Source: Phyllosticta citribraziliensis | Taxonomy: Eukaryota | Assembly: GCF_038025025.1 (NCBI RefSeq) | Contig: NW_027117338.1 | Location: 620,001-684,000, forward strand | DNA: 64,000 nt | Direction: 5' to 3' | In this document: piece after piece, positions 33,586-49,755 of the stretch | Position numbering within the stretch: position 1 is the stretch's first letter | Layout: each line of letters starts with the position of its first letter | Program-made: the position numbers and the translations under genes | The notes under the pieces: generated by a model | Told to the model about the DNA's origin: nothing | Seen by the model: only the letters and a program-made list of their open reading frames with translations | Database searches by the model: none

Positions 33586-36483
33586 TTAGTGACCATGCTT
33601 CTCGGCATGCTTCACATACATTTTCTTTGTGGGAGCCGGTTTGGTCTCATCGTTAATGTGGAGCAGCCTGGCCTGGTTCATCATGCCCTCGATCCACTCT
33701 AGCTTATCCTCAGAAAGGTCGTGCTTTTTGGTGTTGGGGCCCGCCAGTCCGACTTCAGATCCCGCCCAGGACCTCTGCGACCCAACAGAGTTTCCGAAAT
33801 CTTCTCTTCCCATAGAGCTGTAGTTCGACATGGCGCTCCCAGGCCGGGATCTGGATGCGGGTGTGTTGCTGTTGCCAGTCGCAGGAGTGCCGAGGAACTT
33901 GGACTTGTTGGACTTGTTTGACTTGTTGGAGCCGGCATTGCTGTGTGAACTGGTCGGCCTGACGCCTTCGGGCGTGTGTTCCACCCCGAGAATCTCAAAC
34001 TTGCTGTCAGATACGACGCGCCGGCTGTGGTGTTCGACGTATTGCCGCAGGTACTCTCCCAGATCAGCCCATCCGCCTCCAACACGGACCATGACTCGCT
34101 CGCCATTGGGTCCAACGCGCCGCACAAACAGCTTGATGGGCTTGTCCTGGCCAGGTTGAATGAGATGGTACAGTTTGATACCCGAGTCTCTCTGGAAATT
34201 ACGCGCATTGCCGGAGCCGTGTTCAGACTTTACAGGAGACAAGATCATCGAAGGCGTACTTGGTTTGCGAGAAACACGTAGGGACGAAGGAGGACGTGAG
34301 CCAGCGCGAGATCCCGAAAAAGTGCGAACCGATCTGGATGCCCAGTCCGTGGGCGAGTTGTCTCCGCCGGAAGAAAGATGAATTGGGGCATGGACCGAAG
34401 TGATGATTTTGCGAATTTGAGCCTCCAAATCCTGCGTAGCGCTGGACTGTCTTCGATGTTGGTTCTTTCGAGCAAGGCGGAAGGTCGGTTCTGTCGGGGA
34501 CAATGAGCTCCTTTCAAAAGGTTTGGAATCTTCGTCCGAGCCGTGGCCGGCGGAAGTACCAGAGGTTTGCCGACCCTTGGCACCGCGCTTGAACATTGCG
34601 GAGTTGAGAGGAGGGCGAGCTCTCGTGTTCCGTCCTGGTAGAGCGCGAATGGACGGAGAATCGTCAGGGGTGCCAACGCTAGAATTGGACCGCATCGAAC
34701 CGACCGAGCGATAGCTACTCCGAAGTTCACGTTCTGGCGTCGTCCCGGCTGAGAGCAGATCATCATCCGCGTCTGAGGATGCTACGGTTCCGGATTTTCT
34801 TGGAACACTCTCGCCTACCATCCTGTCGGAAGAACTCTCTTCAACGGCAGGCTCAGCTCTGGCCTGATGTCGTCCATTTTCCGGGGAAGTTGGAGTTGAA
34901 GGAGAGGGGGAATCGTTAAGTCTTCGCAGATTGCCGCTTTCCTGCTTCTTGGAAAGAGGTTCGGCGAGGCTGAAAGCCCGGCGAGTCTGGGCGGGTTCGT
35001 CAGACCCCTTGATGCTTGAGCTCCTTGCACTGTCCTCGGATTCCTCTGCCTCGTCGCTGTCGATAGTGTCGGGGTTCAACGTAAAGACACGAGAAGGACC
35101 AGGTTTTGTCGGAGTGCCTTCAATCGTTTCCAGTCGGATCTTGGGCGCGAGCTTAAAAGGAGAGATGTGCACTTGCGGGACAGAGCTTGACCGATTCCGC
35201 TGATGACCCCGGTCATCCTTATCCGCGGGAGAGTCAAATCCAAACGTAGTGCTGGACCTGTTGATACCCGGTGAAGGTTCTCCGGACCGGCCCGAAACCT
35301 TGGGTGAATCGTTTGATGTTTCGGATAGCAAGGAAAAGGGACTGTCTTCTGGCGACAAGAAACGACTGTCTCTAGGGCTGGTCAATCGGGTTCCTCCAAA
35401 CGGTAGAGGCTGATCAGCACCGCGAGCCGAAGTTGGACGGGTCAGTCTCTCGGGCGGCCGAGACATGAGCATGTCGGCTTCGAAGATTCGGCGCTGAGCG
35501 TCGGAGCACCACTTTCCATATTCGGCCTCGAGTTCTTCAAAATCGTCTATCCAATGGTCCGGGAGCGAGTCGTTCATGTCTTCGAGGGAATCGAGCATTC
35601 GGTCAAGTTTTTGTCCAAGGCTTCTGACTTGAGTTTCCAGTACACTGCGAATCGTCTCGGCGGCTTCTTTCCACTCGGCCAGAGCCTTTTGCGATGGCTC
35701 CAATTCTTTTGGAGGAATCAGAGAGTCCCACCCGAGGCGCAGGGCCTTTTTAGCCTCCTTCAGGCCGCCCAGGAATTTGGGAACGTCGCGCAAGACGGCG
35801 ACTCTCATGGTCCATGTGCGCGACAATTGGTTGAGGTAGGATAGACACGGAAGAGCTTGTAACATGGTGTGGGTCACGACATAGGAAAAGTCGTCTAGCA
35901 AGTGCAAATCGGCGCGCTTCTTTCCCTCGGATGGTGCCGACTGCCAGCGGTCCATGGGATACATGTCGAGAATGTGTCCTTTGAGCTCGTCCATGTTGAG
36001 ATCTTCTAATTCGTCCTTGATCTGGTCGAGCCTCTCCCCATAGGCCTGGACACGGGCAGCGGGCAGCGAGCCCCAGTACGCAGCGCGAACGGCATTGGGC
36101 CCCGATGAATGCTCTGCTATCCGATCCAGCTGGCGAGGCGGCTCCTCAAACGTGTCGGGCCAGGTCCATTGTTCCAATTCGGCACACCACGACTTGATCT
36201 TGTGGGTAGCCGAGGCAACTCGAACACCCAGGTCCTTTTCGGCGGGAGACGCGTTGGAAAGCGATGCGAGGAGGGTTTGGTCGTTTGGGGTGGTGGCGGA
36301 AGAGTCGACGCCCTCGGTGAAAGCCTTGAGGGTGGCCGAGGGAGAAATTGGCCATGCGGCGTCGAAGGCGCTGACATTCCGGCGACGATCGCGCGTGGGC
36401 GAAGGTGAGGGAGCATCGCCGACTTTCCTGCGGTCGAGAACGGGTGCGGAGAGGGACAGGGCGCTGGGGGGGCGGGAGGTCAT
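33586..36483 (-). CDS. GAS2/GAR-domain microtubule-associated protein
   Basis: Single-exon 965-aa ORF with the GAR signature RVMVRVGGGWADLGEYL, an N-terminal helical region and Ser/Pro-rich linkers. Confidence 0.88.
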   Translation of the reverse strand: MTSRPPSALSLSAPVLDRRKVGDAPSPSPTRDRRRNVSAFDAAWPISPSATLKAFTEGVDSSATTPNDQTLLASLSNASPAEKDLGVRVASATHKIKSWCAELEQWTWPDTFEEPPRQLDRIAEHSSGPNAVRAAYWGSLPAARVQAYGERLDQIKDELEDLNMDELKGHILDMYPMDRWQSAPSEGKKRADLHLLDDFSYVVTHTMLQALPCLSYLNQLSRTWTMRVAVLRDVPKFLGGLKEAKKALRLGWDSLIPPKELEPSQKALAEWKEAAETIRSVLETQVRSLGQKLDRMLDSLEDMNDSLPDHWIDDFEELEAEYGKWCSDAQRRIFEADMLMSRPPERLTRPTSARGADQPLPFGGTRLTSPRDSRFLSPEDSPFSLLSETSNDSPKVSGRSGEPSPGINRSSTTFGFDSPADKDDRGHQRNRSSSVPQVHISPFKLAPKIRLETIEGTPTKPGPSRVFTLNPDTIDSDEAEESEDSARSSSIKGSDEPAQTRRAFSLAEPLSKKQESGNLRRLNDSPSPSTPTSPENGRHQARAEPAVEESSSDRMVGESVPRKSGTVASSDADDDLLSAGTTPERELRSSYRSVGSMRSNSSVGTPDDSPSIRALPGRNTRARPPLNSAMFKRGAKGRQTSGTSAGHGSDEDSKPFERSSLSPTEPTFRLARKNQHRRQSSATQDLEAQIRKIITSVHAPIHLSSGGDNSPTDWASRSVRTFSGSRAGSRPPSSLRVSRKPSTPSMILSPVKSEHGSGNARNFQRDSGIKLYHLIQPGQDKPIKLFVRRVGPNGERVMVRVGGGWADLGEYLRQYVEHHSRRVVSDSKFEILGVEHTPEGVRPTSSHSNAGSNKSNKSNKSKFLGTPATGNSNTPASRSRPGSAMSNYSSMGREDFGNSVGSQRSWAGSEVGLAGPNTKKHDLSEDKLEWIEGMMNQARLLHINDETKPAPTKKMYVKHAEKHGH

Positions 36484-37117
36484 TGCGGCGGAGGAATGAT
36501 CAACTCAGCATTGAGGGAGCTGTTTGTCGAAAAAGGGCGGGGAGTCGAGTGTTTACAGTGCGGCAGGGTGCGGACGGGAAGAGGTGGGTGGGATGGCAGA
36601 AGATGGGGAACGCGTCGCGCAGGTGTGGAGGGTGCCGAGCCAGGATGTTCGTTATTTCACCTAATTATTGGATCTGAGACCACCTCGCAAATGAGAGCGC
36701 CCATGATGATTGGCGCCGGTGATGAGCCGCCCGTGGGTGTGCCTGGACGGACCTGGGACTGGACCTGGACCTGTCGCCCTAACAGACCTGTGTGTTTTGT
36801 TTCCCGTCAAAACAATGACATTAACCCTTTCCGTCCCTCACGTCCTTGACACTTGACAGCGCATCGTCACTCTCGCTGCTTGCAGCATCCCCCCGCTCCT
36901 CGCAAACGATCCGCGCATCAGCTCCACGTCGCGTCCATCATGTCCACTGCGCTAAAAAGGGGCCAGGTGGATCTTCAGCCCTGCAGAGGCGATCGTGGAG
37001 GCTGAAGAAACAGAGACTGTCTTTGCCGGCTCATTTGTTTTTCAAAGCAATCTTGATTCTTCTTATCTCAACCTCGCTCAAATCGTCTCGTCTACGCCCC
37101 ACGGTCCCGGCCTCCAC

Positions 37118-37916
37118 TCAGTGCTTTGCCTTTTCTTTGGCCAGCCGTTCCTCGCGAGCGACCGCTTCAACCCTGCCATCTTCGCATCAGCGCCAAATTT
37201 ACTCGAGAGTCCCCACGCCCGGTTCGCTTACCTCTGCAGCGCGCCGAAACCCTCAATAAAACACGAGGTGATCCACTGCCACCAAAGCCCGCTGAGCATT
37301 GGCACGTTGTACCTTTCCAGCTTACGCGCCAGCACCACGCTCTCGATGAGGTGGCCTACGACCATGCCCCAGAGCACCACTGGCTGCACTGTAGCCGTGA
37401 AGGCGGCAAAAGCCGGCGCGTAACCCAGCACGTTGTCATGAATGTAAGATCCCGGCAGTGCGTTGGCGCGCCTCGACACGAGGATAAACGACAGGATGCA
37501 GACTGCGAAGACGAGCGCGTGCAGTCCGCGAGGTCGCGTGTACCTCTTGACAGTGACGTCGCTCCTACCCAGGCCCTCCAGCGCGTCCTTGTCCAGCTTG
37601 ACCAGACGCTCGCGAGCCTCGCGCCATGACTTCATCGGAGGGTTCAGGGGGATGGTGTGGTGCTTGCCAGCCGCCGCGATGGTCATGGACTCCAACGAAA
37701 TATCTGCGAGACGAGCGTTTCGGGCCTTGTAGGACGAGACACTGCAAAAGTGCTCAAGGTAACGGCAAACCTTGACAACTCAGCCACGGCGACGCTGGAC
37801 AGGACAGGACAGGACAGACGCAGTTGGAAAAGGCATACCGAGTCATGATGGTCCGCGTTCATGTGGGAGAGAATGCGCTGCTTGGCGGCAGCATCTTGCG
37901 ACTGCGAGTCGGCCAT
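37118..37916 (-). CDS. DUF2470-type N-terminal domain fused to a membrane domain (fungal integral membrane protein)
   Basis: Motifs RILSHMNADHHDS, IPLNPPMKSWREARERLV, GHLIES and WITSCFIEGFGALQR. The last exon reads VEAVAREERLAKEKAKH* and ends at 37118. Confidence 0.8.
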
Positions 37917-39128
37917 GGCGGGTGGTTGGCGGGGGGGAGCTCGCTCGCTGTCACTTCACCGGAGGCGATGAGGTGGCTACATTAGCCGCTGTCGGAGAAG
38001 GAAGCCAGCGCTGTCCAGAAAAAGTCGTGGCCATAATAGCGCGCATCGGATCTCGCCAAAGACGTTCATCTCAAGCGACCACTCGACCGATGTCTTGTCA
38101 GCTCTTTTTTCTACACCGCAATAGATTCAACCTCGGGGAATCGGCTCGTCCGTGTCGAGGCGTGTACAAGCTCCCGCGCTCGCAGGGACCAAGATCCGAG
38201 CGATCTCCCGGAGGACAGAGAGTGATCCCGTGAAGTCGCGTCCTGGAACAAGCTACCAGCGCGACGACAAGACAGTGCAGTGCAGCGAAAACGGGAAGAA
38301 ATCCGAGGTCATGCGCAGAGTCTTCCCAGCCCCTTTTGTGATCACTAACACACCAACGTCAGACTTGATCTCAGCTACTCGGAATCGACGCTTTGCCACC
38401 AGGTGCAACGGTTAGGCGTAGCACCAGTGACATGAACATGTTTGCTAGCTCCGTCTTCCCGGCCCCCCTCCCGTGGGAGCTCCCTCCCGCCCGTCCTCAC
38501 CCTCCCGCCGGGACTAGGTTACGTTAGCTGCTGTGTGAGAACTTGACGTGAACAAGGGTCCTGCAGCTTGGCACCTGGGTAGACGAGAGTTTACGGAATG
38601 CTCTCGTCATTTCTGCAGCGCCCACCATCATGATCGATCCTGTCAGCCGTCCCCACTAGGCTGAGACGCGCACCCTGCCTCCGACATTGAATCATAACTT
38701 GCCGAAAAGGCACCAAAGACGTTGCGCATGACGCTGGGCTGTCTGCCAAAACTTGGAACGGTGCACGGATTCCCGCAGTGGGCCTGTTAGCACCGCGCCG
38801 ACGAGGTGCGAGATCGAGACCTTTTTCCCCCACCGCCATCAACCCTGCCTCTCCACCTGCTGGCTTGCGTCAGAGGCTCCCATGCCCTCCAGTCTGTCCT
38901 GCAGGGGTCTCAATGGCCATGAGCGCAAACCTGCTGCTGATGCACCAAGCATCTTTTTCCCCCCGCTGCCCCCCGTCATTTCCTTTTTACAATCTTTCGT
39001 ACCTGAAGTCTACCTCTTTTCACATCTCCTCTGAACAACTCTTCCTCCGCTCCACCAACAACCAATCTCTTTGATCAAAAGACCCCAACCAACCAAACAA
39101 CACATCTCTCTCCTCAACCATCAACACC

Positions 39129-39837
39129 ATGGCGGACAAGACCGAAGAAACCCAAGCCTCTGCCGGCGCTCAGGGACAGGCCTCTGGTTCCGGTTCCATT
39201 GGAGCCCAGGGATCGAGCAAGACGGCCGAGAGAAAGAAGCCGCAGAAGCTCGGTAAGAAGCAGCCCGAGCCACAGCAACAGCCTACGCCTGAAGAGTCGC
39301 CCGAATCTGATGACGGCGGAAAAGACGACGAGCCAGAACCAGAGCCCCGCCAGCAATCACGGCGCCGCCAGTCGCGCGGACGCGGCCGTCGAAACGTCCC
39401 CGACAGCGACACGGAATCGCTTGCGCGCTCTGATGTGTCTACCTCTGGAGGTCGTCGCAACCGCCAACGCCAGAGGCAAAAGGGCAAGCAGGGCGGAGGT
39501 CCGCTCGACGGCATCTCCGAGGGGCTTCCCGGCGGAGACCTTGTCAATGGCGCCGGCGACCTGGTGCAAAACACGGCCGGCAACGCCGTCAACCAGGTCG
39601 GCAACACGGCTGGCCAGGCGCTGGGCGGGCTCACTGGCGGCGGCAAGAAGGAAGAGGAAGGCGGCGAGGATAGCAAGGGTGAGCAGCTGCGGCTGCGCCT
39701 GGAGCTCAACTTGGACATTGAGGTGCAGCTCAAGGCAAAGATCCACGGTGACCTCACGCTTGGCTTGCTGTAAGTAGCGGCAAATCCTCGATGCAATTCA
39801 TCGCTCGATCATTTGCTGACAAGAGTTTAGGAACTAA
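39129..39837 (+). CDS. hydrophilic disordered protein with conserved C-terminal beta-module (paralog A)
   Basis: Start context CAACACCATGG. The C-terminus is LRLRLELNLDIEVQLKAKIHGDLTLGLL, followed by intron 39770-39830 and then N*. Confidence 0.85.
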
Positions 39838-40776
39838 AGCAAGAGCGGCGTATGTCGAACGAGCGGGACGGGTAGCAGCGCCGGTAGCTTGCAGATTGGA
39901 TGCATGTCGTTTTCGTTGTCTTTTCCATGTTTTCTTTTTCCTATTTTTTTTTTTTCGATTTCTCCGTAGCAGCTAATATTCCGGGCATGGAGGAGCGTTA
40001 CGATTGCACGTCAGACATGGGACGATTTTCCTTTGGCGCACGGGATGCGGCTGGATTGGCTTCCAGTGTTGGACTTGGTGTATGTTAACATGACCAAAAT
40101 GCTACGCCTGTCTTAGCTCTTGGAATGGACTCTCGACGGTGAAGAAAATAACGAGCGAGTGGGCTGCTGCAGTGTGACGGCGTGTACACCACTGGGTAGT
40201 CTGGTCTGAGGTTGGACAGGCGGATGTGCCGCGATGGGAGCACCCCTGCTGGCTTCTCGAAGCGCTGCGGCTGCGGGGCGATGGCTGGCAAGCGCCGGCC
40301 ACGATGCTGGTCTCTTTCGTCACCGGCCACTGACGCCTGAATCACTCGGCCAGCCCAGGATGCCCGCTCCCAGAGCCCCCATTGACGTCACGCTCGAAAC
40401 GGCCGACGTCCAAGCTGCCCGCAGCTGCATGATGGCTGTGGTGGCCATCAGGTTCTGGCTGCTTTTCGCCTCCTGCTCTGGCCAGACCGCCGTCACTGAA
40501 GTCCGGTCTCTCCCCCTGTCGCCCTGGTTAGCCTTGGTGTCATCACCCTCTCTTCTGCCACTGTGTTCCCGCGTCTCACCACACCCTGCACCCTCTCCGC
40601 TTTCTTCCTCTCTTGCTCTGCTTCTCCTCCTCACAACTACTACTACAACTCGCTCGTCTCTCAAAATTGCTTCTTCCTCTTCCAGACAAGAAAAATCATA
40701 CAGTCGTGCCACATCCGTCTCTTCGGCTGCATCATCGACAACTACCCCTTTCTTTTCAACAACACCCTCATCCGTC

Positions 40777-41420
40777 ATGTCCGACTCTGAGAGCGACCAC
40801 CGCGAGGTGCCCGCCCAGCGCACCATGATGCAGCAAGAAAAGGCCATGAACAAGTACAAGCAAGACCGCCGCGAGCAAGGGCTGCAATCGAACCGGTCGC
40901 GGTCGGCCTCGCGACGGGCCCGCCGCCAGCGCATCCAAAAGGCCATCTCCGAGGGCAAGTACATGAAGACCAACAGCCTCGAGGCGCTCGAGGAGGCCGA
41001 CGCCAACGGCGAGCTGCAAAACATGGGCATCTTCGAGCGCATCGGCCCCGACAGCACGTCCATGGACGGGCCCGTCACCCACGCCCGCGCCATGCGCGGC
41101 GAGATCCCCATGCGCGGCACCAACCCCAACCAGCCGTACCGCCTGGACCCGCAGCAGCAGAAGAGCAGCCTCGACGACACCGACGGCCTCAAGCTCAAGC
41201 TCGAGGCAAACCTCGACGTCGAAATCGAGCTCAAGGCCAGCTTGAGAGGCGATTTGACGCTTAGTCTCTTGTAAGTTCTGCCCCCCTTCCCGCTCTACAC
41301 CCGTCTCCCCACCCCCTTGCGCGCGTACGCACCCCCTACCTACCTACTCCGCTTGTTTTGTGTTGTCATCCTTGATTGACGCACGACTCCCAATTTTCTT
41401 GCGGTCTTTCCAGCGAGTAA
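40777..41420 (+). CDS. hydrophilic protein with the same C-terminal beta-module (paralog B)
   Basis: ATG at 40777 (MSDSESD). The C-terminus is LKLKLEANLDVEIELKASLRGDLTLSL, followed by intron 41271-41413 and then FE*. Confidence 0.82.
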
Positions 41421-44093
41421 AGATACGAAAAGAGAGAAGTCATGAAAAATAGCGCGCGCTCTCCTCCTCCTCCTGTTTTCATTACAGCCTTTCGGCTGAT
41501 CTGTTTCCCCTCGTCGTCCAGAGAATAACAAGCAATGCTCCTCTGTAGTGCGTGATCGACATGTCGTCAGCCAGAGCACGATCGACCACCACTACCTCCC
41601 TCCTTTTTCCCTGTGCGAGCGAAAAAAAAAGAGTCGGTCAGTCAGTCGGTTGGTCAATTGGTCGGCCCAGTCAGTCAGCAACTCGGCCCAGTCTTGTCGT
41701 TCTCGTCACTTGTTGCTGCTGCTGCTGCTAGTCAAATTGTTTTTGCGCTGCTACCGCTGCTGCTGCTTTTACTGGCTTCTTTGCCTCTCTTGTCTCTGAC
41801 TAGCAGTAGCTCCCACCTCCTTGCCTGACCAACTGACTGGCTGCCTGGTTGGCTGTCTGCCTACTACTACTGGCTCTTTTCTTGCGCGCGCGAGGGAAGA
41901 AATTAACGAAACTCATTTACTCTTCGATCGATCGGTCGTCGTCATCGTCTTCGTCGTCATCGTCGCGAGCTACAGGGGCCTCAAATCGGCATGGAACGTT
42001 TTTGGATCTCATTTGGGTGGTAGTGGAGGAACCGAGAAAGATGGAAATGCCCCGTTGATGTCCTCACGACGTTTGCTTGTTCGTCTTTTCCTTGTCCTTT
42101 CGTTTCTTGGGTACCATTTCTTCCTCAACTTCTGTTCTGTCTCCTTGTTTTTTTTGGCTCCCAAATGGATGGTTGGCTGTTGGACGGATATCGGTGTTTC
42201 AGAATTAATGACTGTCTTCCTTGCCATCATCCACCATTCATCCTCGGCCGTCATCTCTGTCTTGCTTGAATAGCACTGTCGTCAGTACCACCGCCAAAGG
42301 CCCGGGGGTCCAGGGATTGAGGCACTGAGAGACTGCTCGCGAGGGCAACAGAATCTGGTCGGTCAGTCAGTCAGTCAGTCCGTCACCCAGTCACCTGGTG
42401 CCCGCCTGCCTATTTTTCTGTCCATCTCTCTTGGCCTGTCTCACAACAAGCGCATCCATCCGCCCATCCGCCCACCTCGCCCTTTTCTCAACCACCCTCA
42501 GCGGCACCACCATCATCATCATCATCAGCGTCATAACCACCATCGTCATCGTTTCTGTCGCATTTCGGCGTTCGGATGTTTTTTGCTCGTCTCATTTCCC
42601 TTTCCAGCCGCAGCACGGGACCATATACATCACTACATTAGCAAGGAACTGTACCTGGTAGGCCAATCAAAAGCTTCCTTCTCACCGCACGTCGTTGGGA
42701 CCTCTTTTGTGTTTCGTGTCGCGCTTTCCCTTGGTCTAGTCGTTCGTTGTTTGGGACTTGGGAGGTCATGCGGAGGCAAGTGAGGTAGGTTGCACGCAAA
42801 GGGGTCGCTTGGTCGCTCGCTTCTGTTCGGCTCAAGGTAATGGACAGAGCCGTGTGGTGGGACCGAAGCGAAGGAGAGAGAGAGCAAGAGGAGAGAAGGG
42901 GAGAGGCTGAGGATGCCTCATCTGAACAAAGGTCAGTCGGCAGTCAGTCAACTCGGAGGCGACACGAATCGACGTGACGAAGACAACTCGCTCACCTTGT
43001 TGCCTGCGGCCCTTTTGCCCTTCTGTCACGCTTCCCTGCTTTCTCTTGCCTCCCTCCACTTCTTCTCTTTTCATCATGCATAGCATCTTTTTGTGCAAGT
43101 ACTCGCCAACCAGCCAGCTCTCCTCTCCCTCGACCAAGCGCAAACGGGCACTCAGTCACCTCAGGTCGGCACCACCGCACAAGACACGGCCACAGGACAC
43201 TCGCGTGCGGCAGACCGATGCATGAAGAAAAAGGGGAACGGGACAAGACAAGACAATAGACGATGCGATGGGATGAGGTGAGGTGAGGTCGAGATTGAGT
43301 GTGCGCGCCAAAACCTGTCGACCGGCGCCAGGCCCACCGCACCACCACTCCCACTGCTACCACGAAAGGGTGACACGCGGGACCCAAAGCGTTGGTGTAC
43401 CGTATCCGTGCGTACCGGTACTGTGGGCTGCGCTGTGCTGCGCTGTCTGTACGACCACACCACCGCTACCACCGCTACCACCAGTCACCACCACACTCAG
43501 CTTGTACTGTACATACGTACATCTCATCTCCACCAAGCAAATTTGGTGCAGCGCATGCACGCGCGCACTTTTGACGCGTTCCGCTGCCCGGGCAAATGAT
43601 TACGGACGGGCCGGCCGGATTGCAGCACCCACACGCGCCCACACACTGTTCGGGAGTGCCGACTGTGGGTTGGTTCATCCCTTGCATGCTACTTAAGGTA
43701 CGAGGGTACCGTAGCTACAAGTAGTGCGGTACCCACACCACCACCGTCAAGGCGTTGTGCGTACAGTACCGTACGGTACCTGGCTTCCGTTCGCTGCTTC
43801 CATTGTTGGTGCGTCATGCGCGGCGACTCCGCTGTCTGTCAGGTGCGAGGTGCGCGGACCTTATTTGGACGTCTGTCTGTCTCTCAGTGTGTCGGGCAGT
43901 CAGTGTTTTTCCTGTCGAGCTACTCTCATCCCTTTATTCGATACCTCGCTATGTCGCAAGCGTCAGCAGACAGACTAAACGCGTTCTCGTCGTCAATTCT
44001 GAGCGAGCGCATGACCTCTGTTTCTTGCAATGGAACTGTGCCGCCCTGCACCCATTCAAGGATAGCGATAGCGATACAGGATAGTCAGATGCT

Positions 44094-45370: not shown

Positions 45371-45553
45371 GATTGCGGCGGAATGGTTAACCTAGCGAAA
45401 ATAACGAATGCTGCAGGCGAGCGGATGGGTTTCGAGTTTGAGCAGTGCGTCGTTTCCAGGAGCCGCTCTCCCAGGCTAAGACGATGACAGAAGCTTGAAG
45501 AATTAAGTGAGCTGTGCATAGAACATGTGGGTTGAGAGGATTGAGTTCATGTC

Positions 45554-48500
45554 ATGCAAGATGGATGTCAAGGTGTTTGTCGGGGAGACGCGTCGGGCAG
45601 TCGCGTCCCGGGACGCACGCTAAGGAAGCGACCAGGTGGTCCATGCTCACCTCCCCCAACATCGGTCCCGTCCTGCCTGGCCCCCGGAGTCTCTTCCCGC
45701 ACGGCATGCTTTCAAGCTTTTCCATCGCGCCTCACTGTCGACCAAATTGTCTGCCTCGCGCTCCCCGGCAGTTATGCACGTCTCGCACAACCTCACTTAT
45801 TCTCCAGCCACGAACGTTGTCGCGTGGTTCCAAGTTCGTCCCGTATGACGCCATTATTGAGCGTAACGAGCGCGAGCTCGCTGCACACCGACGGCCATGC
45901 CTCTACCCGCCCCTCGGGGTCAAATACTCCTGCAACCTCCCAGTCATCTGCAAGCACCCTGGTCACAAGTTCTTTCGGTGCCGCTGGACTCTCGGGCGCT
46001 TTTTCGACGCTGCAATACCTGCCACTCGGCTGTTTCTTGGCTACAATACCAACGGACCTCGATCTAACCCACAGCGACAACTGGACTGAGCTCAGCACCG
46101 CCCACTTGGCAAGCCCTTCATGGGAACTTGACAATGATTTACGCAAGCATCTTGTTCAACTACTTGACGCCCAATGGATCCGCGCTGAATCTTCCCGTCA
46201 CGTGGAACAACATCCTACAAATGTTGCCGTCATTCGCCTGTGGATTCTTCCCCACGACGTTGGTCACGCAACTGTCAATCGGAGCGCTAGAAAAGTCCAT
46301 TTAGCCCTGGAGCATGTCATCCAGTCGGTCACTATTTCGACCGATGTGTGGCACAATGTCTCGATTGACTGCACCGAAAAATTCGACCCTTGGGCGTGTC
46401 CAGATGAGTCCTCTCTCTTCTACTTGTTCAATACCTTGCCTTCACCCGAGCCATCGCCTTCGAGGGTGGAAAACCTGTATTCCAAAGCAGCCATGCAGGA
46501 TCTTTTGGACTCAAGAGTAGAAGGCCTCAAGTCAAAACTCTACCCGTTTCAAGCACGATCGGCCGCGCTGATGCTCCAGCGTGAAGCATCTGATGAGCTT
46601 TATTTGGACCCACGTCTAGAGAAGAGGCGAGCGCCAAACGGACGGCTCTTCTACTATTGTCCTCGGAATATGGAGTTTCTTCACGCTCCGCGCTTCTACT
46701 CCTCCCAGAAATCTGGTGTTCTAGCCGAATTGATGGGCTCTGGAAAGACAATCATCGCTCTCAGTCTAGTCTTGGCCACCAAGAACCACGTTCCTGCCAT
46801 ACCACCACAACACCAAAGGATTCCAGTGCGAAAGACAGTCGGGACGCTCTTCGACATGGCAGCTGCGGCCGTAAACCGTCATGCAATCCCATGGAAAACC
46901 GTGCTTGCTTCACACGCAGCCGAGACCGGAGAATTCCTCACTGCATGCGAGAAACAGCTGGAAGCCAATCCTCCGATTTATGAGATCCCATCGCAGCCCA
47001 TAAGATTGAATAGGAATACGACGACACCAGCTCCTCGGAGGCTTCGTATATGCGGCACTACCATCATCGTTGTGCCCTTGAATCTGCTCCATCAATGGCA
47101 CTCTGAACTGCAGAAACACGTTGAAGAAGATATACTAAAAGTTCTCATCATGGACCATAACAAAAAGCAGCTGCCGCCTGCCGATGAGCTTGCCACGTTC
47201 GACGTCATCTTGTTCAGTAGAGGTCGCTTCGAAGCAGAAGTCAGAGATGGCTACGATGCTCAAGGACGAAAGTCAGCCGACTACAAGACCCCATCAGTCT
47301 GTAATTGTCCTTATGTCGGTTCCAGCCGAGTTCGGGATTGCACGTGCTTCAGGGAAAACGAAGTCTACGTGTCGCCTTTACGACATTTGCATTTCCTGAG
47401 GATCATGATTGACGAGGGTCACTCCTTTTCTTCCTCCAACTCCAATGCCGTCCAAGTGGCCCAGAAACTGGTTCATGCGGAGCGGCGCTGGGTGATTTCT
47501 GGTACGCCCGCAAAAGATGACTTGCTTAGTGTTGAGGTGGACCTTGCTTCAAGCCAGTCTACAACAATGGAAGAAGACATGCAGATTCTGCGCGAGGCGG
47601 CGCTGGAGAGGCGCAAACGTTTTGATGGTGAAGAGTCTAACAGTGCTGCAAGAACTTTAGGCACGCTGGCCACTCACTTTCTTCAAGTCCGTCCCTGGTC
47701 TGAAGGAGCGGATTGGATTGAGCATGTTTACCGGCACGAGCATCCCAAGAAGCGGACTCTTTCGGCCTTTTCCGAATGCATGGGGAAAACCCTGGGACAG
47801 CTGCTGATCAAGACACAGCCAGCAGACATGGAGCGCGACGTGGTCTTACCTCCCTTGAAGCACTCCGTGGTCCGTTTGAAGCCGAGCTTCTTTGACAAGG
47901 TCACGGCCAACCTCTTTGTCTTCGTGCTCACAAACAACGCCGTGACGTCTGAACGAACTGACGTCGATTACCTCTTCCATCCAAAGAGCCAAGGATCGAA
48001 GAATCGGTTAATCACCAATCTCCGGTTGAGCAATTTCTTCTGGTCTGGCTGGCGAGACACGGATATTGGCAACGCCGTCGAGATTGGTTGCAAATACCTG
48101 CTGAAGAAGGATATCAACTGTTCTGCCGAAGACCGCGAAACGCTGGAAGCTTGCATCAAGTTTTCCGAAGAATTCGTCCTCCGCTCTGAAAGCTGGAAAG
48201 CCATGAGCAGGACGCACGAAGTCGGTCTCTTTGTAGACCACTGGCCGGAGAATTCACCCACGTGGGCACTGGCAAAGGATAATCCTCCGGAGCTTTATGG
48301 AGCCACATTAATCCACCAGGCCCAGGGCCACGTGAATTCCCGATTGAGCGAGGATCCACTTGAAGAACTGGAGGCAGCAGGTACGACTGCTGTCAATTTA
48401 ATTCTCGCACAGTCCCAAGACTTGGATGAGCCAGGAGAGGGCAATAACAAGCAACTCATCAAGGGCATGCCCGCTTCTGGTATTCACGCAGAACTTTCTG

Positions 48501-49755
48501 TTGAAAGAGTACGCAAAGGGGCCGCTACAAAGATCAAAAGCCCACAGAAGGGGAAGGGTGCCAGCAAGACGTCGACTAGAGGCAAAGCTGCGAAGACGCC
48601 AGCCAAAGGTGCACGAGCAAAGACAGACAAGTGGGTATTTGCACCTTTGGCAATTGAAAGATAACTAATGCATTCAGAAAATCCGAACCGGCACCACCGC
48701 TCCCTACACCGCGCAAACGGCCAGACACTGGCATCGAGCTGCCATACGATGCTCCTCTGGCACTCACTCGCATAATAGGCACAGTCTCTGCGAAGCTCAG
48801 CTACCTGCTTGATCAAATCTTAGCGTACTACCAGGACGAAAAGATCTTGGTCTTCTACGATGGGGATAATACTGCATACTACATTGCCCAGTGCCTGGAT
48901 ATCTTGCACATCAAGCACGAAATTTATGCCAAAGGCATCTCGAACGACCACCGCTCGAAGTACATTGTCGCCTTCGCACAAGACCCAAGCCTGCGCGTCT
49001 TACTCATGGACGTCCGTCTCGGTGCGCTCGGCCTCAACGCCAACTCGGCTTCACGCGTGTATTTTGTCAACCCAGTCTGTCGGCCAAGTATTGAAGCGCA
49101 GGCAGTCAAGCGCGCGCACCGCATCGGCCAGACAAAGCCTGTGCATGTCGAGACCCTCATCCTCAGTGGTACGATTGAAGAGGCTATGTTTGAGCGCTCC
49201 AAGGCGATGACGCGAAACGAACATTTGGAGGCCAAAACGCTGGAAGATGACGTCCAAATCACGGACATCATTCAAAATGCCAAGCTCCTGCCCATAACTG
49301 CCGACGAGGCCAGTGGAGACAAACAAATGGCTCCGCTGAGCGTGCCGCAACAACTCTTTGGCCGCCCTGGCCGCATGGCTGCAATCGGAACTCCTCCCCG
49401 TTCAAAGAGATTGCGCACAGAGAACGTTCCAGATGAAATGCCAAAACGTCAGAGGGTCCATCGACCCGAATTGGGCAATTACTTTCCAAATCGAACCATC
49501 ACAGAGCCTCCACCAGGCAGCTACCGAGCGCGCGAGCGACAGGAATTCTGGGATACGTATTTGAGCGTACCACCGACCTCGAGCACTTGGATGGCGACTC
49601 CTGCTCGTCCACTCGAGCCCTTTGCGCCGGTTGCGCCCGCAGTGCCGTCGGTGGCGCAACCGCCAATGCCGATGGAGAGTCAGATAGGCGAGGAGCAGGG
49701 TGAAGATAGGAGTACTAGTCTGTTTGGCGATGGTGGCGGCGGCAGCTGGAGTTGA
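45554..49755 (+). CDS. SNF2-family helicase/ATPase (Rad5/Rad16-like group); true start may be 45845
   Basis: Motifs LYPFQ, AELMGSGKT, IVVPLNLLHQW, IDEGH, RWVISGTP and QAVKRAHRIGQTKPVHV. Intron at about 48632-48677. Confidence 0.92.

Follow-up and report, generated by a model that had tools for sequence, protein, structure and literature searches.

The stretch of DNA considered here, which we call the window, comprises 64,000 nt of the Phyllosticta citribraziliensis genome (contig NW_027117338.1, positions 620,001 to 684,000 of the forward strand), and all coordinates given below are counted from its first letter. Between 39129 and 41555 on the forward strand, sequence and translations reveal two co-oriented genes in tandem, A followed by B. 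The proteins that they encode end in closely related segments, with translation giving LRLRLELNLDIEVQLKAKIHGDLTLGLL(N) for A and LKLKLEANLDVEIELKASLRGDLTLSL(F..) for B, and this C-terminal segment of 28 residues, hereafter termed the module, is the main subject of this study. The reading frame of A starts at 39129 and runs for 214 codons to ...GDLTLGLL, and the spliced product has 215 residues and ends in LGLLN. The frame of B starts at 40777 and runs for 165 codons to ...GDLTLSL(L), with a spliced product of 166 residues that ends in LSLFA. An earlier reading of this DNA, made from its letters and open reading frames (ORFs) and referred to below as the sequence-only reading, had let B end in LFE with its coding sequence closing at 41420; the contigs described next give LSLFA and 41555 instead.

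Gene models (Table 1) were derived from contigs of four public runs placed on positions 38900-41700. Runs X1 and X2 come from an organism that shows no difference from the window in the pieces listed. Their labelling as RNA is conjectural, and the RNA-like signs that they carry are spliced joints, a contig that ends at 40125 with 24 A after it, and a drop in X1 depth in the intergenic region, where thousands give way to 3-114 over 40122-40497. Runs X8 and X11 are plant-metagenome RNA-seq, and their contigs come from a relative, 90-99% alike. The terminal intron of A is spliced in all four runs, yielding CT/G AAC TAA (the slash marks the joint). The corresponding joint of B is found in one X1 contig, with a shorter side of 152 letters, and yields TT/T GCG TGA; the same joint is present in the diverged relative in X8 and X11 (13 diverged letters), and X2 has matching loose ends. 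None of the contig joints listed leads to an acceptor at 41413 for the B intron, for which minor use is possible. A and B are thus transcribed, spliced genes, as the contigs of all four runs show. Contigs are weak evidence on transcript ends, with one X1 contig extending the 3′ untranslated region (UTR) of B beyond 41700. One X2 contig spans the gap between A and B (39987-40713) at a depth below that of the genes, where read-through transcription or library DNA are both possible. For the optional intron in A, unspliced contigs coexist with the spliced ones, and the segment removed includes part of a lysine-rich stretch.

Table 1. Positions of the elements of genes A and B in the window, with the basis for each.
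Feature	Position	Strand	Basis or remark
Putative ATF/CREB-like word TGACGCAA	38865..38872	-	264 nt upstream of the A ATG; only copy in 64 kb
Gene A exon 1, codons 1-213 plus 2 nt of codon 214	39129..39769	+	ORF and translation; RNA contigs in 4 runs; 149 family matches
A optional in-frame intron, 72 nt, removing 24 residues	39253..39324	+	GT..AG joint, 1 contig each in X1 and X2
A module, residues 187-214, last codon split by the intron	39687..39769	+	Module hidden Markov model (HMM), 68.1 bits
A phase-2 intron, 61 nt, GTAAGT..TTTAG	39770..39830	+	Joint 39769>39831 in X1, X2, X8 and X11
A last coding exon part, G AAC TAA (..LLN stop)	39831..39837	+	Sequence and RNA joint
A probable 3′ UTR, tentative poly(A) site near 40125	39838..40125	+	X1 contig end plus 24 A
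Putative palindromic CRE word TGACGTCA	40383..40390	.	394 nt upstream of the B ATG; 1 of 2 copies in the window
Gene B exon 1, codons 1-164 plus 2 nt of codon 165	40777..41270	+	Translation; X1 contig 40496-41270; 839 family matches
B module, residues 138-165, last codon split	41188..41270	+	Module HMM, 62.2 bits; family alignment
B phase-2 intron, 278 nt, GTAAGT..TGTAG	41271..41548	+	Joint 41270>41549 in X1
B last coding exon part, T GCG TGA (..LFA stop)	41549..41555	+	Sequence; X1 contig continues from 41549

As the sequence-only reading had proposed, the two proteins share their C-terminal tail and nothing else. A BLASTP comparison of A with B returns a sole alignment, which covers the last 28 residues (18/28 identical, 24/28 similar, E 3e-10), and hhalign aligns the A family (32 sequences) with the B family (34 sequences) over 31 module columns only (probability 98.1, E 9e-14). 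Paralogy over the full length was considered and rejected. Long tblastn alignments with 24-30% identity, obtained without composition correction, were not reproduced by hhalign, and because the latter aligns the module alone we ascribe them to composition effects. A local HMM finds exactly two copies of the module in the window and no third.

Within the module, hydrophobic and polar residues alternate strictly, a pattern that had been recognized from the letters and that holds up quantitatively. The hydrophobic moment at 180 degrees is 0.94 for A (z 5.6) and 0.89 for B (z 5.8), values that no shuffle out of 5000 reached; the moments at 100 degrees, 0.016 for A and 0.066 for B, lie under the shuffle mean. 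Such alternation fits a β strand and not a helix. The grand average of hydropathy (GRAVY) of the module is +0.37, compared with -1.4 to -1.5 for the remainder of the proteins, and the order of charges on its polar face (+ + - N - -. +. + then G D) is identical in A and B.

To follow the module among related sequences, Joint Genome Institute (JGI) metagenome contigs were scanned with the B alignment, which gave 80 loci. Across the 27 whole codons of the A module, 30 distinct DNA sequences from the loci encode only 3 peptides, and pairwise differences per site at codon positions 1, 2 and 3 are 0.153, 0.000 and 0.513. For the B module 62 DNA sequences encode 20 peptides, with differences of 0.217, 0.058 and 0.524 at the three positions. 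Since many DNA sequences give few peptides, and third positions vary while second positions hardly do, the constraint acts on the protein. The polar-face residues N8, E12, K16, G21-D22 and T24 are fixed as firmly as the leucines, which argues for specific contacts over mere amphipathicity, and the module ranks among the most strongly conserved short protein segments that we have encountered in these fungi. A nucleotide-level element, namely a splicing or RNA-structure signal serving the conserved intron that the module adjoins, would also account for conservation at this site. This explanation is refuted, and we assign it practically no weight, given that third positions differ by 0.51-0.52 per site while second positions differ by 0.000 (A) and 0.058 (B), and that the A module is unchanged in 10 loci without the A intron.

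Both terminal introns are in phase 2 and interrupt the same codon of the module (position 28), each leaving 7 coding nt. On these points, as on the acceptor of A and the donor of B, the sequence-only reading was accurate; the acceptor of B is at 41548 and not at 41413. At most of the genomic loci a donor such as GTAAGT or GTGAGT comes directly after the split codon. The common intron position, which recurs as the same split codon in metagenome loci, marks what had already been regarded as an old duplication: A and B descend from one ancient duplication event, at least in the region of the last exon. Judged by these alignments, the module is an ancient, autonomous unit carried on unrelated N-terminal parts.

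Forty loci include the end of A, and in 10 of them the A intron is precisely absent (..LGLL AAC/AAT stop). Because the B intron is retained in those 10 loci, several of which are on contigs of 24-184 kb, the absence represents loss and not cDNA. Eleven B contigs of ~1.0-1.8 kb that are without the intron, and that end in LSL(Y/F) plus a codon and a stop, are probably transcripts. Without splicing, both A (39770-39775, ..CTG TAA) and B (41271-41276, ..TTG TAA) run into an immediate stop. As a consequence of phase 2 and a GTAAGT or GTGAGT start, an intron-retaining message yields a near-identical protein in which the last 1-2 residues differ. Many public gene models stop inside the terminal intron or read through it, and an intron 7 nt before the stop, together with the conserved pair, should provide useful markers for mending fungal gene models.

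The sequence-only reading had suggested an HMM of the module as a means to count its copies and examine their neighbours. A profile of 36 columns, built from 34 copies from the window and the locus DNA, was searched against 1.84 billion representative proteins and matched 1052 of them at an E-value cutoff of 0.001 and 333 at a cutoff of 1e-10. Among the 150 profile matches listed are 115 additional proteins, which simple motif rules divide into 27 A-like, 19 B-like and 69 other sequences. Many of the last group look like fast-diverged B-type proteins, judging from acidic DDYSD runs and an AMQPY word. Ascomycete carriers include Aspergillus, Penicillium, Paecilomyces, Thermomyces, lichen fungi, Mariannaea, Xylaria, Orbilia and Arthrobotrys, and the basidiomycete carriers in the sample are Lentinula edodes and a Coprinopsis.

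In 455 module proteins the module is located at most 3 residues from the C-terminus in 334, and 121 extend past it; it is never N-terminal (never in the first 10 residues), and two copies are present in only 2 proteins. The extended models that were examined look like intron read-through, where the extra text starts at the intron, or like fusions with the next gene, such as one for a TrmE GTPase. In a Lentinula edodes model (P0277) two similar module proteins are fused in tandem, which suggests that tandem module genes are also present in this mushroom.

The module is uncharacterized, as had been supposed. No Pfam family was found for 69 of 71 other module proteins of at least 100 residues, and the remaining two are fused gene models. 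For A and B themselves, the only Pfam matches at E up to 10 are to CDC45 and FUT8_N_cat, both at chance level. Searches of solved structures by sequence gave no match for B, for the module profile or for the B profile, and one chance-level match (E 0.25) for the A profile; in the ESM Atlas, B retrieves only unnamed ascomycete clusters and A no usable named match. All source names sampled are ‘hypothetical’ or ‘uncharacterized’. Automatic labels such as bZIP domain-containing, integral membrane protein and ribosomal protein S8e (P0311, P0423, P0009, P0018) look spurious, with no Pfam match where this was tested (B and P0311). Searches that covered open full texts found no paper on the module, including under the gene name An12g10450 or four short module strings. 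In the sources consulted, the module is therefore without a Pfam family, a solved relative or an informative name, and its carriers are hydrophilic stress-type proteins defined by a new tail.

The tandem arrangement of A and B is conserved along with the module. An A-type gene is found upstream of B on the same strand in 36/36 loci that have more than 1828 nt upstream of the B module, and the module ends of the two genes are 1260-1828 nt apart (median 1550; 1501 in the window). The 40 loci with a B module and without A each have at most 1637 nt upstream and hence are uninformative, and locus L079 carries A on a contig that ends before the B module. The flanks are less constant. A DUF2470 gene is upstream of and divergent from the pair in most loci and downstream in L057, L065, L066, L067 and L080, and an SNF2 gene may be upstream, downstream or inverted depending on the locus, with A-then-B intact throughout. 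Furthermore, A-family and B-like genes have consecutive locus tags on one contig in Aspergillus cavernicola, A. nanangensis and A. egyptiacus (166912/166913, FE257_003070/003071 and 544028/544027). By comparison of these loci, the order A-then-B predates the divergence of Dothideomycetes and Eurotiomycetes. The two-gene system of the sequence-only reading is upheld in so far as the pair is conserved and its members are linked in all informative loci and in three Aspergillus species; it is too narrow in that the module is present in 1052 proteins, basidiomycete ones included, and in a third module gene at some loci.

Adjacency could nevertheless be a relic of tandem duplication in a slowly rearranging block, with each gene functioning independently. 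In Dothideomycete-like loci, DUF2470 and SNF2 genes too are frequent neighbours of the pair, which indicates some general synteny, and the genes are tandem rather than divergent, with apparently separate transcripts in X1. However, the pair outlasts rearrangements that move or invert its flanks, it is kept in the three Aspergillus species as well as in every informative locus, and its two promoters contain related conserved words (see below). We consider an absence of functional coupling possible but somewhat unlikely.

Short β-prone segments at the C-termini of side-by-side genes are also a feature of fungal amyloid signalling, in which the families associated with NOD-like receptors (NLRs) include HET-s/HRAM, PP and sigma. 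The module might accordingly be a prion-like tail of this type that is templated by a neighbouring immune receptor, and its occurrence in adjoining genes does resemble the gene-cluster logic described in two reports on such motifs (PMC9815663, PMC5485727). No NLR is located beside the pair, though, and the neighbours with long ORFs within ~9 kb encode a GAS2-domain protein, a DUF2470 protein and an SNF2/Helicase_C protein. In addition, both copies of the module are C-terminal, an N-terminal position is not seen in any of the 455 module proteins, and no prion or amyloid-motif family of Pfam matches at E up to 10. The module also differs from these motifs in its high charge content, its near invariance between Dothideomycetes and Eurotiomycetes and its occurrence in basidiomycetes, and its same-sign charges disfavour in-register stacking. 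This explanation is largely refuted and we regard it as very improbable.

Outside the module the two proteins differ in character. A is rich in G/Q/E and poorly conserved except for its last ~80 residues; in an alignment of 32 family members, columns have a mean identity of 28%, and the 17 that are invariant all fall within residues 186-214. A search for its family gave 149 matches, and the best among those listed is 67% identical and comes from a metagenome. No NCBI-named Botryosphaeriales protein is present among 120 A-family matches listed, and the gene may therefore be missing from the annotations of these fungi. The region 5′ of the A module holds a glycine-rich segment (VG.TV.GA.DLVQ.TAG.AV..VG.TAGK..GGL), arginine-rich runs and a KR.PPKL word.

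In contrast, the family of B comprises 839 matches, of which the 120 listed are 73-97% identical and cover 85-100% of B. Its closest relatives among the matches listed are Phyllosticta proteins (92-97% identical), and identity across Dothideomycetes is 75-83% over the full length. Alignment of 34 members gives 50 invariant columns, which include SRS.SRR..R.R, the block FERIGPDSTSMDGPVT.ARA.RGEIP.RG and the module. AlphaFold2, run on the B monomer with its alignment, predicts helices at residues 17-33, 39-58 and 68-76 (pLDDT, the predicted local distance difference test, ~75-80; mean over the protein 58.9). Taken together, alignment and model identify B as a basic protein that is conserved and partly helical, and not as disordered filler. 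Of the low-complexity N-termini that the sequence-only reading had ascribed to both proteins, that of A is confirmed as G/Q/E-rich and poorly conserved; the first 137 residues of B are instead 75-83% identical across Dothideomycetes, and full-length conservation and predicted helices do not agree with a role for B as disordered cargo. A basic stretch of B (SRSASRRARRQRIQK) within a predicted helix recalls basic leucine zipper (bZIP) factors, a label that some UniRef entries attach to members of the B family. This assignment was rejected, as no bZIP family of Pfam matches at E up to 10, no leucine-zipper heptads follow the basic stretch, and in the AlphaFold2 model helix 39-58 is followed by short helices and no long zipper.

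In composition A resembles the hydrophilins, for which PMC6730492 quotes a GRAVY below -1 and glycine over 6-8%: A has a GRAVY of -1.25 and 17% glycine, and B, with -1.09 and 10/165 glycines (~6%), is a borderline case. Hydrophilins are further marked by induction under water deficit, on which the CRE-type promoter words of A and B (see below) bear only indirectly. The likeness extends to LEA-like and dehydrin-like proteins (DprA/DprB of Aspergillus fumigatus, CON-10, Hsp12), which are likewise small, very hydrophilic, glycine-rich, largely disordered and cytosolic. The translations of A and B contain no signal peptide or transmembrane segment. No LEA or dehydrin family of Pfam matches A or B at E up to 10, and the DPR repeat, a repeat of 23 residues named in PMC3103405, was not searched for. 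A single near-invariant C-terminal module of β type and a terminal intron are not described for LEA and dehydrin families, and B further differs from these in being conserved over its full length and not glycine-rich.

To compare promoters, words of 6-8 letters lying at most 600 nt ahead of a start codon were ranked by presence in most of 32 distinct loci and rarity in 20 control stretches, and promoters at least 80% alike were then grouped into 23 clusters. The words ranked highest are of the ATF/CREB type: the promoters of A have TGACGCA(A), and those of B have TGACGTCA and GACGTCA. Within 600 nt, TGACGTCA is present upstream of B in 12/23 clusters and in 0/20 controls, TGACGCA is present upstream of A in 16/23 clusters, and 13 of the 23 have a word of the cAMP response element (CRE) type upstream of both genes. 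The consensus bound by AtfA of Aspergillus nidulans and Atf1 of fission yeast, factors that ready conidia for stress, is ATGACGTCA and has TGACGTCA at its core (PMC12731236). Conidia-associated genes, including dehydrin-like ones, are under AtfA control (PMC4869263), a further likeness to A and B with their putative CRE-type words. These ATF/CREB-type words hint at stress or spore regulation of A and B. A second palindromic word, AACCGGTT, is located within 600 nt upstream of A in 13/23 clusters (for example at L001, L009 and L011) and upstream of B in 5/23, compared with 0/20 controls; the one copy in the window lies outside 38000-41000 and not in the A promoter.

We propose, with a probability of roughly 0.35, that the module is an association-dependent β assembly tag that brings hydrophilic stress-type carriers together. 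The module alone would be unstructured and would become a β strand only upon association. Assembly would proceed by module-module pairing (A-A, B-B or A-B), and would gather these hydrophilic, arginine-rich proteins into a defined β-sheet oligomer or a higher-order body. A would act as the glycine-rich, hydrophilin-like disordered partner and B as the conserved, basic, partly helical one, with both probably co-induced by an ATF/CREB-type factor (AtfA/Atf1) as part of a stress and spore programme. We favour an assembly tag because both faces of the module are fixed, the strand-like segment is long, the module is unstructured alone, and two module genes are kept together.

Several observations weigh against this proposal. 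In the AlphaFold2 model of B, residues 124-165 are without structure and the pLDDT of the module is ~40 (<50), and in that of A (mean pLDDT 50.6) the module is a low-confidence helix at ~50. We distrust the helix of the A model, since it would have no amphipathicity. Because the same charges occupy the same positions in the two modules, in-register parallel stacking would juxtapose like charges, and module variation is too small (3 peptides in A) for an analysis of A-B co-variation. With regard to the stress and spore programme, the promoter evidence consists of conserved words only, and its Poisson significance is overstated as the loci are related; stress response element (STRE) words are not enriched (1.12 and 1.06 compared with 1.10 per 600 nt); and An12g10450 of A. 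niger, which one source gives as similar to an A-family match, is absent from 5 supplementary files of PMC4869263, a study of the Aspergillus conidia transcriptome. The stress or spore link put forward in the sequence-only reading hence has indirect backing from the ATF/CREB-type words and none from STRE words, and its suggestion of a polymerising or amyloid-like β module finds no structural support in monomer folds of low confidence. A prediction for the complex of A 160-214 and B 120-165, for which alignments were not used, scored 0.05 and has no bearing either way.

Two other functions are conceivable for the module. The first is that of a docking peptide, which would not assemble with itself and would add strands to the sheet of one conserved folded partner, as a signal for localisation, chaperone handling or turnover. 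The module is C-terminal and single-copy in 453/455 module proteins, occurs on very diverse N-terminal parts and is unstructured in monomer models, and the near invariance of both faces across classes is as expected for a peptide read by one receptor. However, no candidate partner was found, 28 residues with ~13 leucine-type positions are long for a linear docking motif, and docking leaves the kept adjacency of two module genes unexplained. We consider this function unlikely.

The second is that of an interface anchor, in which an amphipathic β sheet lies flat on a hydrophobic surface (a lipid droplet, a membrane defect or a spore surface layer) and tethers a protective chain. Designed peptides with alternating Leu and Lys form β sheets at interfaces, and share with the module a strict hydrophobic/charged alternation, an amphipathic strand and an all-leucine face. 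This precedent, the perfect alternation, the hydropathy of the module and the hydrophilin-like composition of A speak for an anchor. The natural module differs from the Leu-Lys peptides in its fixed charge order, its conserved turn-like NLD and GD positions and its defined length. Moreover, its polar face is conserved like the hydrophobic one, which simple surface binding does not need, and without a signal peptide or transmembrane segment any such surface would have to be intracellular. An anchor is therefore doubtful in our view.

Should the module prove to be an assembly or targeting tag, it would determine the organisation of an entire group of abundant hydrophilic proteins in fungal cells, perhaps those of dormant or stressed spores, and a tag so compact and portable could be useful as an experimental tool. 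More speculatively, and with a low probability, it may be an undescribed β tag in both major fungal divisions through which A and B enter a reversible ordered body controlled by AtfA as part of a stress and spore programme. If so, it would constitute a new class of functional β scaffold, unlike prion-like amyloid signalling and unlike the helical LEA-type protectants.

Some loci carry additional module sequence. A third small ORF, ~2.2 kb downstream of B at L009 (9378-9648) and L010 (12688-12835), has a diverged module as its C-terminus (..SLKIKIELDLEVEVEIYARVKGDVTIGLM stop), and an out-of-frame duplicate of the second half of the module follows it; the window has no such gene. In the window the pair is flanked on the upstream side by a DUF2470 protein (37231-37779, - strand) and by an ORF of 972 residues with a GAS2 domain (33589-36504, - strand). 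On the downstream side, an SNF2-family helicase occupies two reading frames at 45545-49752 (+ strand) and is probably split by an intron.

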